The notes under the pieces: generated by a model
Told to the model about the DNA's origin: nothing
Databases searched by the model: none
Seen by the model: only the letters and a program-made list of their open reading frames with translations
Position numbers and translations under genes: made by a program
Shown here: in pieces, positions 52,995-55,073 of the stretch
How positions within the stretch are numbered: position 1 is the stretch's first letter
Layout: each line of letters opens with the position of its first letter
Assembly (NCBI GenBank): GCA_014687725.1
Contig: GCA_014687725.1_4094.1
Length of the DNA: 64,000 nucleotides
Source of the DNA: a phage
Direction: 5' to 3' (one strand)

Positions 52995-53849
52995 ATGAAA
53001 CTTTATCTAATCGTTGACTACAATAAGGATTATGCTGGTAACTTCACCGAAGATTCGGATGGATATTGCACATCGACTAATGTCAATGTACGTAGCAGTA
53101 GTGCTCATGAACATGAATCTTGTAAAAATCTAAAAGATTTTATCGCATACCGAGCATTTGAAAAGAACTTCTGCCGCAGTAGATATTCGAAGTTTGAGTA
53201 CCCGTTAATTGATGTTCCTGATGATTTAATGTTCCAGTTAATGCTGACTGGAGTTCAAGATTATGATTACATAGCGTATAATCATATTACTAAGAAAATT
53301 TATATTGGTACATCATCACATGACACTTCTATGTATGCATCATGCCCAGATGATCGAATGAATGATAGAAAATCATACTATAGTGGGTCAGTTGGTTTAA
53401 ATGATTCATTAAATAAAAATTCATTCTTTGAGTATGTTTATGATTACCATCATGAGAAAAAAGAACGTGAAGATTACTGTATAGCAATTGATAGTACTAA
53501 TGGTTATGAAGACGTGAAAGAAGCACTTATGCCGTACATTATTGAAAAGTACTACAAAGATTTTCAGTACTGTAGTAATTTTCTAATCAGAAATTCTATT
53601 ATAATCGGTCGCCAATCTAGTGCATACTCTCAGTACTATAATGATTCACCAGTAGCATCGGCAAATGAAATGTGTGATATTTTACAAATTCCACGTGAAG
53701 ATATGGCATTCATTTTTACATCTTTTATTGAAGATGATGAGTTGTATATTAAAAATAAACACCGTTTCATGCCAAGCAAGATTGAGGTTATTCGAAGTTT
53801 TAGTGTTGATATACTAACAAATTTCACAGAAAAAACCGAATATAACTGA
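52995..53849 (+). CDS. hypothetical protein (284 aa), weakly family B-like
   Basis: ATG 52995 with SD GGAG (track 52962 overlaps terminator); segment DDLMFQLMLTG. Confidence 0.65.
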   Translation: MKLYLIVDYNKDYAGNFTEDSDGYCTSTNVNVRSSSAHEHESCKNLKDFIAYRAFEKNFCRSRYSKFEYPLIDVPDDLMFQLMLTGVQDYDYIAYNHITKKIYIGTSSHDTSMYASCPDDRMNDRKSYYSGSVGLNDSLNKNSFFEYVYDYHHEKKEREDYCIAIDSTNGYEDVKEALMPYIIEKYYKDFQYCSNFLIRNSIIIGRQSSAYSQYYNDSPVASANEMCDILQIPREDMAFIFTSFIEDDELYIKNKHRFMPSKIEVIRSFSVDILTNFTEKTEYN

Positions 53850-53878
53850 GACAAATGATAAGTTAATGATATAATATA

Positions 53879-53912
53879 AGGTGACAACATAATATGTTGG
53901 TCACCTTTTTTA
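53879..53912 (+). terminator. rho-independent terminator
   Basis: 12-bp stem AGGTGACAACAT/ATGTTGGTCACCT + T6. Confidence 0.8.
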
Positions 53913-53913
53913 A

Positions 53914-54527
53914 TCCTGAAAGGTTCCCATAAGGAAATGATTAAAAGCCTAATCCACTCGAAAATGTAGAGGGTAGATGAGTAGTCCTTTCAGTACGAAC
54001 AGCAGATGAAACCCGTTAGATGATGGCATAGTTTGAACCACTCACGGCAATGCGGCTGTATAAAGAACTCCAATAGGATAAAGAGAGTTCCTCGATAGAC
54101 ATATAAGGATCGCACCTTACCAATTATCTAAGGGAGATTTCATAAGAAATATGCGGTCGGAATTATACAATATAGTTGCGTCCAAATTTTGTGAAATCAA
54201 ATACAAGTACTGGTCATATGGTATTTGTATTATGTGTCGGGATGTTTAAGACCGACGACCGTTGCTACAAGAACCGCGATAGAGAGAAACAGAGCAACCC
54301 GCTTTCGTCTCGTAAGAGAATTCGTGATATGAACTATGTGAAGGCCACCAGCGTCAAATTTTTTTGTTCTTTCCCCTGCGGGGGGGATGAAATATGCTCA
54401 AGCAAACCCCGTCAATATTAATTAAAAGAAAATAGTACTTGTAGAATTAGACATGCGTAGCATGATAATTCTACTGATGTTGATGCAATCAACGTCACGT
54501 ATATTCATTGATGTTTCCATAGGAATA
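53914..54527. other. ORF-poor, GC-richer intergenic region (candidate structured RNA / origin-type element)
   Basis: ~600 bp with no convincing ORF on either strand; multiple short hairpins; G7 tract 54380-54386; minus-strand Chi 54345-54352. Confidence 0.4.
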
Positions 54528-55073
54528 ATGATGGCATTTATTAGAAAAGAAAAAACTGTTACTTATAAAACTTTGAATTTTGATGATTGCATTAATCAAT
54601 CACAAGACGAAGATATCTTTACTGGATATGTGGTTATTAAAGAAAAAGGATGCATTTCTTATATAAAGGAATTACAAAATGGAATTGAAGTGACTTCAGT
54701 TAAATTACTTCCTACTCAAAAACCAACAATATCAAAAGCCCAGTATGGTAATTATTTTGAAGAAAGATATAGTAATAATTCAATAAGTGTTAAGGCTCAT
54801 ATTATTAAAGGAGAACTAGAAGGAGAATATAGAAAATACAACCCACAAGGAAAATGTGTTTGGGTTAAATACTTCAATTCAGGATATGATGTAACATCTG
54901 AAATTATAGAATTCTTGGGTTTAAAATGTACCCCTGAGACTATTCATGATTACAAGTTCAATACTGAAGAAGAGTTTAATCTGATGATGCGTTACGGTTC
55001 ACATTTTAAATTTTTATATGAATATAACATTGACAGTAGTACTTTTGATAAGATAGTACACAACTGTCTCTAA
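54528..55073 (+). CDS. hypothetical protein (181 aa)
   Basis: ATG 54528 with SD AGGAA (track start 54453 upstream); repeated G-x-Y/W-x-Y-N-x-G-like units, weakly MORN-like. Confidence 0.6.
   Translation: MMAFIRKEKTVTYKTLNFDDCINQSQDEDIFTGYVVIKEKGCISYIKELQNGIEVTSVKLLPTQKPTISKAQYGNYFEERYSNNSISVKAHIIKGELEGEYRKYNPQGKCVWVKYFNSGYDVTSEIIEFLGLKCTPETIHDYKFNTEEEFNLMMRYGSHFKFLYEYNIDSSTFDKIVHNCL

Follow-up and report, generated by a model that had tools for sequence, protein, structure and literature searches.

A large structured RNA present in several ancient copies in RaK2-like jumbo phages and as single copies in bacterial integrative elements

Large, intricately folded RNAs are rare in bacteria and phages. 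There are few classes, and those that are understood are ribozymes or the cores of essential ribonucleoproteins. The orphan classes ROOL, GOLLD and OLE were lately found to form unexpected RNA-only assemblies. Here we describe the gap between two genes, g415 and g416, in a stretch of 64,000 nucleotides (nt) of phage DNA (GenBank assembly GCA_014687725.1, contig GCA_014687725.1_4094.1; hereafter the window). An initial annotation of the window had noted the gap as free of open reading frames (ORFs) and had proposed a structured non-coding RNA, a replication origin or packaging signal, or a decayed gene. With a probability of roughly 80%, an independently transcribed gene occupies the gap and encodes a ~500-nt non-coding RNA that stands alone, acts in trans and depends for its function on an elaborate conserved three-dimensional fold. 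The RNA matches no catalogued family and is a new class of large structured RNA. Its structure is conserved, it is read from the plus strand behind a conserved promoter motif, and it exists as multiple ancient paralogues. The functional unit runs from 53847 to about 54417, with a probable extension to 54474.

The RNA resembles ROOL, GOLLD and OLE in its length of several hundred nucleotides with many helices and pseudoknots, in forming a GC-richer island in an AT-rich genome that was found as an ORF-free conserved intergenic region, and in being a stand-alone gene of phages or prophages without a partner protein gene. However, it has no homology to them in sequence or structure, with no Rfam hit at any threshold, and covariance-model comparison gave no membership in any of the three classes. 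The 4227 covariance models of Rfam 15 gave no hits in the whole window at gathering thresholds. In E-value mode up to E = 10, the window region and six diverse members gave only terminator-like or chance hits, none of them in the body of the RNA. The covariance-model scan, a check that the initial annotation had suggested, thus places the RNA outside the described families. ARAGORN found no transfer RNA or transfer-messenger RNA gene in the window. Full-text searches of the literature brought up no description of this RNA, and the papers on phages phAPEC6 and CBB make no mention of it. ROOL, GOLLD and OLE belong to Lactobacillales, rumen or extremophile lineages, whereas the present RNA occurs in Enterobacterales and their jumbo phages, with four to five ancient paralogues per genome and a 3' module of two co-varying direct repeats. 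ROOL and GOLLD are reported to form homo-oligomeric cages, as seen by cryo-electron microscopy (PMC12286853).

Another described likeness comes from PA5oct, a distantly related jumbo phage with four ORF-free transcribed regions. These regions, ncRNA001-004, were defined by RNA sequencing, are 236-619 nt long and all on the plus strand, and some are very abundant (PMC7318152). They are analogous at most. As homologues, the PA5oct long non-coding RNAs were rejected after an nhmmer comparison with filters off, covering ncRNA002 and ncRNA004, which showed no similarity.

A blastn comparison of window 53850-54530 (681-base query) showed 99.6% identity to Escherichia phage 121Q, an Asteriusvirus (jumbo myovirus, 348.5 kb), indicating that the window comes from a 121Q-like jumbo phage; window position 53850 corresponds to 121Q 192745. 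The upstream gene is g415 of 121Q, which ends at 53849, and the most plausible start of the following gene, g416, is at 54531 behind AGGAA. The 121Q record starts gene 416 at an ATG equivalent to window 54462, inside the conserved downstream hairpin; the ATG at 54531 is the likelier start. The initial annotation described the composition of the gap correctly. The GC fraction is 0.385-0.445 over 53900-54499 compared with about 0.27-0.33 in both flanks, and there is no conserved ORF in 53850-54530. The longest ORF between 53849 and 54531 is an 81-codon TTG ORF (54176-54421), which lacks a Shine-Dalgarno sequence. This ORF, or the small ORFs of GenBank records, could represent a decayed or unannotated protein gene, and several deposited genomes indeed annotate three to five 'hypothetical proteins' there. 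However, no frame is conserved among the homologues, in which stop-free stretches span 28-93 amino acids and length differences are distributed 27/24/20 across the three frames, and the substitutions are compensatory in RNA helices. These results refute the decayed-gene candidate, and a protein gene of any kind is extremely improbable.

The stretch was found by blastn in 71 phage records, all of them RaK2-like jumbo phages, with the host genera Escherichia, Salmonella, Klebsiella, Yersinia, Erwinia, Serratia, Cronobacter, Pectobacterium and Xanthomonas. The DNA identity falls to 70-75% outside Asteriusvirus, in jumbo phages of seven other host genera, with four to five separate matches per genome. 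Such conservation and recurrence go far beyond chance. Phage 121Q has four copies, at ~90.3, 192.8 (the window copy), 247.5 and 326.7 kb, all on the plus strand and dispersed, and all sitting in gaps of the deposited annotation. Gene 516 of 121Q (minus strand, 247799-247954) overlaps paralogue D; in other GenBank records, the locus is either left empty or carries three to five small 'hypothetical proteins' annotated across the RNA gene. IMG/VR, JGI metagenomes and GTDB genomes were searched by pattern and then with nhmmer, which yielded 141 hits and 70 distinct full-length copies. The copies form at least four paralogue classes, each with members from Serratia phage BF, Pectobacterium phage CBB, Cronobacter phage GAP32 and Yersinia phage fHe-Yen9-04. 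Since every class has members from all four, the duplications predate these phage genera. The paralogues are only ~70% identical to each other, and each has been retained since the ancient duplication. Phage RaK2 has a divergent copy that is syntenic with the window copy (ORF445, gap, ORF446, dam) and shows a compensated change in helix Pn. The copies in jumbo phages are non-redundant and several are kept, and integrative elements keep one. Neither the multi-copy nature nor the sharing with bacterial mobile elements is visible from the window sequence alone. Overall, the interpretation of the initial annotation is partly supported.

Comparative evidence for the fold was obtained from an alignment (A2) made with MAFFT from sequence only, comprising 41 sequences at no more than 90% identity, RaK2 included. 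The helices were drawn by eye and with RNAalifold from 71 sequences, followed by an all-against-all covariation scan. The tested model consists of 105 pairs in 22 helices, and 500 shuffles and sliding by one to three columns served as controls. Standard pairs occupy 91.8% of the paired cells on A2 (shuffled 73.3 +/- 0.4%, slid 39-43%), 83/105 pairs are changed on both sides (shuffled mean 57, slid 39-45), and the covariation score is 0.493 (shuffled 0.170, slid at most 0.115). None of the 500 shuffles attains any of the observed values. Compensatory changes thus exceed both the shuffled and the slid controls in an alignment that had not been fitted to the structure, as expected of a conserved structured RNA. 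The alignment of the four 121Q paralogues likewise shows invariant blocks alternating with helices that bear compensatory changes. The top hits of the unsupervised covariation scan were the hand-drawn helices, and the scan revealed blind an additional long-range helix, PK3; most nested helices were also recovered independently by RNAalifold. Alternations involving G·U pairs occur in Pn (54284-54304: GU 24 / AU 17), Pi (UG 31 / CG 9) and Pz (CG 30 / UG 10). Read from the opposite strand, these pairs would become A·C mismatches, so the RNA is the plus strand. The comparative alignment had been suggested as a check by the initial annotation; together with three pseudoknots, the conserved promoter and the strand-specific G·U pairs, its outcome strongly supports the structured non-coding RNA among the candidates.

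The same data bear on a signal at the level of the DNA, which would be a packaging site, a Chi recombination hotspot or a protein-binding repeat. The sequence is repeated in the genome, and the reported minus-strand Chi is present as its complement CCACCAGC at 54345-54352. However, base pairing is kept rather than sequence, which contradicts a DNA-level packaging signal; the paralogues share only ~70% identity, and the G·U-type changes make sense on one strand. The Chi complement overlaps the first 3' repeat site in the paralogue class of the window only. The other paralogues and orthologous classes lack it and read CTATCATCG, so that a functional Chi is unsupported and the match looks coincidental. 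A DNA-level signal is therefore hardly credible.

The RNA folds into at least 20 helices with near-invariant junctions and is locked by the three pseudoknots (Table 1). One pseudoknot brings the 5' end (53916-23) into the Ps loop, in another Pk crosses Pm and Pn, and the third joins the Pi loop to 54327-33. The near-invariant junctions are GAAACCCG, CGGCAAU, AUAAAG, GAUAGACAUAUAAGG, UAAGGGAG, GACCGU and AUAGAGAGAAAC..ACCCGCUU, a pattern also shown by ribozymes and by other RNAs that have a tertiary core. Group I introns and RNase P RNA are of comparable size and also have conserved single-stranded junctions and crossing helices, and the order Pk-5', Pm-5', Pk-3', hairpin, Pm-3' recalls P3/P7/P8 of group I introns. 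However, the present RNA has no covariance-model match to them, does not lie within a gene and has no P1-type helix joining its ends, and no guanosine-binding or P4 signature was recognised. The location of the element between complete ORFs, and of paralogue B between minus-strand genes, also does not fit a group I intron. For bacterial RNase P there was no hit even at E = 10, and no pairing of the 5' end with the 3' end emerged from the covariation scan.

Table 1. Coordinates of the predicted promoter, helices and 3' elements of the RNA gene in the window.
Feature	Position	Strand	Remarks
-35-like hexamer TGAGAC	53847-53852	+	overlaps the TGA stop of g415; 17 nt upstream of TATAAT
Extended -10 TGATATAAT	53867-53875	+	TATAAT part 53870-53875; invariant in alignments
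Terminator hairpin and U6 of g415	53878-53911 (hairpin 53878-53907)	+	-13.5 kcal/mol, z = -4.1
5' pseudoknot domain	53916-53996	+	H1, Pa, Pb, Ps
H1	53916-23 with 53986-93	+	92.5% paired, 7/8 pairs changed on both sides; 3' strand within the Ps loop
Pa	53924-27 with 53933-36	+	
Pb	53949-51/54-55/57-59 with 53969-76	+	conserved loop GAAAAYGUA
Ps	53981-83 with 53994-96	+	100% paired, 0 unpaired cells in 41 sequences (UA 22, AU 12, CG 7)
Central domain	53999-54118	+	Pc, Pd, Pe, Pf, Pg
Pc	53999-54003 with 54055-59	+	100% paired, 4/5 pairs covary
Pd	54013-16 with 54044-47	+	CCGU/ACGG becomes CCGA/UCGG in one class
Pe	54019-26 with 54038-43	+	
Pf	54065-70 with 54085-90	+	6/6 pairs covary
Pg	54105-08 with 54115-18	+	
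Invariant junction UAAGGGAG, then variable hairpin Ph	54128-54198	+	Ph carries module UACAAUAUAGUUGCGUCCAAAUU
Ph	54136-42 with 54192-98	+	base 99% paired, 3/3 of those pairs covary
3' pseudoknot domain	54200-54333	+	Pi, Pj, Pk, Pm, Pn, Pl, PK3
Pi	54200-10 with 54221-31	+	11/11 pairs covary
Pj	54236-40 with 54252-56	+	
Pk	54261-65 with 54294-98	+	100% paired; crosses Pm and Pn
Pm	54275-79 with 54322-26	+	99% paired, 5/5 covary, three to five pair types per position
Pn	54282-86 with 54302-06	+	100% paired
Pl	54308-11 with 54316-19	+	
PK3	Pi loop 54213-19 with 54327-33	+	99.7% paired, 7/7 pairs covary
Repeat site 1, CCAGCGUCAAAU	54348-54359	+	direct repeat with site 2; consensus A-Y-C-A-N-CGUCA-R
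U7 run	54360-54366	+	terminator-like hairpin and U run inserted at this point in roughly half of the homologues
Hairpin Pz	54367-54391	+	UUCUU-U-CCCC-UGC-GGGG-GGG-AUGAA, holds the G7 run; -12.3 kcal/mol
Repeat site 2, ACCCCGUCAAUA	54406-54417	+	conserved 3' tail (CAAAYCNCGUCAR); consensus A-Y-C-N-CGUCA-R
Downstream hairpin, probable 3' extension	54441-54474	+	-14.8 kcal/mol, z = -4.9

Beyond these helices, a conserved module of ~25 nt, UACAAUAUAG(A/U)U(C/G)CGUCCAAAAUU, is located at window 54150-54190 and at homologous positions. Copies carry it either at the tip of Ph or in the stretch between Pn and Pl; paralogue D has it in both places, and in the other copies GAAA caps Ph. The module may be a docking or dimerisation element. 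It holds a CGUC core resembling the two 3' repeat sites, and in some classes part of it is replaced by the 10-nt palindrome GGGCUAGCCC.

The motif TGnTAYAMT lies directly upstream of the RNA in 68 of the 70 full-length copies, and a TGRVAY hexamer is found ~17 nt further upstream in 63 of them. A promoter scan detected CTGAGA/GAGACA with TATAAT at 10/12 matches. Phages CBB and GAP32 have a 'divergent RpoD-like' promoter class with a -35 TGAAACG and a classic -10 (PMC5259590). By its motifs (-35-like TGRAAC, a ~17-nt spacer and TATAAT), the predicted RNA promoter belongs to this sigma-70-type class. The chromosomal copies have the same promoter with an A-tract in front.

From its TGAGAC, 17-nt spacer and TGATATAAT, the promoter would start transcription at ~53881-53884, within the 5' arm of the g415 terminator. 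The strong terminator reported in the initial annotation is present but was misplaced, since it lies downstream of the RNA promoter and not upstream of the element. The segment 53878-53911 has the stable GC-containing hairpin directly before a U run that is expected of an intrinsic terminator, although a simple terminator scan missed it owing to a 1-nt bulge. Because the expected start falls within the 5' arm, the hairpin should be weaker in the RNA's own transcript; folding gave only -5.0 kcal/mol for a transcript beginning at 53883. We infer from this folding that the g415 terminator would halt transcripts from upstream and that the RNA's own transcript would escape it. The promoter-then-hairpin layout recurs in an unrelated paralogue class (L048, L038).

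The order of a promoter, a structured RNA and, in many copies, a terminator-like hairpin or U run would also suit a cis-acting leader, either a riboswitch-like or a processive-antitermination element in the style of HK022 put, that would decide whether transcription passes the terminator or U run into the genes downstream. Plus-strand genes do follow paralogues A, C and D, and the window copy is without an efficient terminator ahead of the next gene. However, paralogue B of 121Q is antisense between two minus-strand genes, and its whole class ends at a convergent terminator without a downstream plus-strand gene. That setting, at 326.7 kb in 121Q, precludes a role as leader for any gene downstream. 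In the prophage-like elements, the RNA gene is followed by a repressor gene in convergent orientation. Moreover, the genes downstream of different copies are unrelated and carry their own promoter module past the element. A leader function is accordingly very unlikely.

Past the core, the 3' module comprises, in this order, repeat site 1, a U-rich spacer or a terminator-like hairpin with a U run, hairpin Pz, a linker and repeat site 2. Site 1 and Pz are separated by either 5-26 nt or 34-44 nt, a bimodal distribution, and the long form always contains a hairpin of variable sequence followed by T5 or more. In the window, the sequence before U7 does not fold (-1.6 kcal/mol), and therefore no efficient terminator is predicted at U7. 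Pz is kept in all copies, including those of RaK2 and of bacteria, and its inner stem varies on one side only, to U·G. The G7 tract to which the initial annotation had drawn attention (54380-54386) is confirmed and is the 3' arm of this hairpin. In the tail at site 2, AAA and UCA are invariant in the 41 sequences.

The two sites are direct repeats of ~11 nt (AYC(A)NCGUCAR), whose Y is identical at sites 1 and 2 in 41/41 sequences. Rare substitutions occur at both sites jointly in independent lineages, namely CUUCA (RaK2), UGUCA (L051) and CGACA (L205). Since the substitutions occur in parallel at both sites, they imply that one partner reads both. The sites co-vary in identity and not in complementarity. 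No compensating changes for the repeat sites were found when the close pairs L205/L207 and L051/L034 were compared. A fixed-register hairpin, Px, pairing a 5' arm with site 1 or 2, was rejected as its pairing was no better than in the shuffles; this is because the register varies among classes. Self-processing or alternative pairing at the twin sites is a conjecture.

Many homologues have, 35-80 nt past site 2, a hairpin with covarying stems and a conserved 11-nt loop, GAACGNAGUGA. The window hairpin at 54441-54474 is probably their counterpart. A canonical early promoter (AAAATTCTTGACA...) comes after the GAACGNAGUGA-loop hairpin. In the convergent-junction paralogue class this early promoter lies only ~60-70 nt from the bidirectional terminator that it faces and would give a very short transcript. 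The downstream loop motif AACGNAGUGA was rejected as a general motif of the phage, its sole match in the window falling inside a coding region.

The G-rich 3' module bears on the replication origin proposed in the initial annotation. The structured transcript of each copy would then be a pre-primer forming a persistent RNA-DNA hybrid near this module, as in ColE1 RNA II or T4 oriF/oriG. The predicted promoter-driven transcript of ~0.5 kb with a G-rich run near its 3' end resembles both; the run is G6-7, with conserved sequence past the terminator-like hairpin. As with oriF/oriG, the copies are dispersed in a T4-related genome, four of them around 348 kb and all on the plus strand, and the promoter class is tied to DNA-synthesis genes, CBB having the same class ahead of such genes (PMC5259590). 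Phage 121Q also encodes a UvsW-like helicase and RNase H. However, T4-type origins need an AT-rich unwinding element. None is present here, where the DNA downstream of the promoter motif, which an R-loop origin would share, is GC-richer and selected for RNA pairing. The structure, with its three pseudoknots, is far more intricate and deeply conserved than those of RNA II or oriF/oriG. The bacterial element lies between integrase and repressor genes, outside any recognisable replication module, and ancient, sequence-distinct paralogue classes are unexpected for interchangeable origins. An origin is thus unsupported, though without direct counter-evidence, and we consider it unlikely.

Full-length chromosomal copies occur in Serratia fonticola, Serratia sp., Silvania hatchlandensis, Enterobacter chinensis, an Enterobacteriaceae isolate and Buttiauxella. 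In E. coli, the RNA was found in 2/5,426 complete genomes. Integrase genes are found no more than a few kb from the chromosomal copies. At 5/8 loci, a serine or tyrosine integrase gene immediately precedes the RNA gene, and in 4 of those 5 the RNA gene is upstream of a divergent CI-like repressor gene. In Serratia fonticola (L207, NZ_CP183218.1), the RNA is positioned between host rof/tilS and two ParB/RepB-like genes, with a gene for a large serine recombinase beyond them. At this locus, the space from tilS to the RNA gene holds two rof genes in tandem (87 amino acids each), and the duplicated rof may mark the island boundary. In E. coli LR-29-1 (L213, NZ_AP027515.1 ~3,472,900-3,483,600), an island of ~10.8 kb between ffs and ybaA carries the RNA gene (L213 8955-9551) together with integrase fragments, IS3 and a DuOB/DUF488/DUF4326 trio matching the PADLOC candidate defence system PDC-M45. 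A relative of this island's DUF4326 protein, with 41% identity, is encoded near 231.1 kb of 121Q. The RNA copy of the E. coli island nests in a jumbo-phage class and is 79% identical to a Serratia phage BF copy.

The neighbouring genes, as assigned with Pfam, PHROGs and PADLOC, include integrases, CI-like repressor, ParB-like, LprI-like and PDC-M45 candidates, none common to all contexts. A blastp comparison of the ORFs beside the four 121Q copies with all ORFs of nine bacterial loci gave no hits. In a tblastn search of the whole 121Q-type genome with the bacterial-element proteins, only the DUF4326 protein matched, not near any RNA copy. The RNA is thus carried by unrelated mobile elements without a shared protein gene, and since the phage and bacterial contexts have no protein gene in common, it is an autonomous module exchanged among mobile elements.

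Exchange of this kind raises the question of whether the element is itself selfish or mobile, with the twin sites as boundaries of an intron-like, ribozyme- or recombinase-driven insertion, that is, splice sites, target-site duplications or crossover cores. The ~11-nt repeats do change in parallel in at least three independent lineages, as crossover cores or recent duplications would; the element is multi-copy, has moved between jumbo phages and integrative islands, as the E. coli copy shows, and adjoins integrase genes in bacteria. However, the paralogues are ancient and syntenic, with the RaK2 copy at the locus of the window copy, and no copy lacks the segment that the repeats enclose. Genes for an integrase, a reverse transcriptase or a homing endonuclease do not accompany the phage copies, the copies share no adjacent gene for a reverse transcriptase, IscB/TnpB or a homing endonuclease, and Rfam gave no match to group I/II introns. 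That the RNA gene is such an element is very improbable.

The bacterial contexts also recall ToxI and the pseudo-ToxI decoys of phages, which are structured RNAs common to bacterial defence-island contexts and lytic phages. As for ToxI, a terminator separates the RNA from what follows, and the repeated short sites could be nuclease cleavage sites. However, the present RNA has no tandem 36-nt repeats and no downstream toxin gene and is >10x larger. It also does not fit a type III toxin-antitoxin RNA, having no tandem repeats and downstream genes that are unrelated or convergent.

For a stand-alone, trans-acting non-coding RNA, the proposed mechanism is that it would act through its tertiary structure, to the benefit of mobile elements, and would be either a ribozyme or an RNA for scaffolding or assembly. 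The process would be one useful to very different mobile elements, for example in conflicts between phage and host or between phages. The location of the RNA among accessory and lysogeny-region genes suggests host takeover, defence or counter-defence. The 3' module would present two identical short sites around the U run (in many relatives, the terminator hairpin) and the G-rich hairpin Pz, and one partner may handle both sites through self-processing, a conformational switch or alternative pairing. A specific form of this proposal, to which we give only tentative credence, is that the RNA is a new ribozyme or RNA-only machine, whose ~420-nt core would recognise the twin sites for self-processing or regulated assembly, the paralogues being specialised versions or subunits deployed in conflicts with hosts or with other phages. 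Self-processing would then release or rearrange the segment containing Pz, and integrative islands and prophage-like elements would use their single copies to the same end; this too is possible rather than probable.

Several observations weigh against a discrete, trans-acting RNA. No RNA-sequencing study of any RaK2-like phage was found in the full-text literature that would provide evidence of a discrete transcript. Single-sequence folding is unremarkable, with z = -1.0 for the plus strand and 0.0 for the minus strand, and is uninformative. In about half of the relatives, the terminator-like hairpin lies 5' of the conserved Pz and tail, which is hard to fit to one simple transcript. A scan of every alignment position for 8-nt complementarity to site 1 or 2 reached a best average of 5.5/8 and gave no internal partner for the sites. 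In addition, nothing points to a particular targeted cellular process.

Outside the RNA genes, the region 135,194-137,161 of 121Q (L004 35195-37160), just upstream of the window, comprises nearly 2 kb without an annotated gene amid very small early genes.

The RNA described here is a new class with unusually strong comparative support. The finding has a practical side, as the locus is either blank or covered by spurious small ORFs in current GenBank entries for these candidate therapeutic phages. The RNA is experimentally tractable, being present in the cultivable E. coli phages 121Q, PBECO4 and phAPEC6, with four to five ancient copies per genome; antisense oligomers are already effective in jumbo phages (PMC12571901). 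Since it is common to phages, chromosomal islands and prophage-like elements, the RNA would work without a dedicated neighbouring protein gene.

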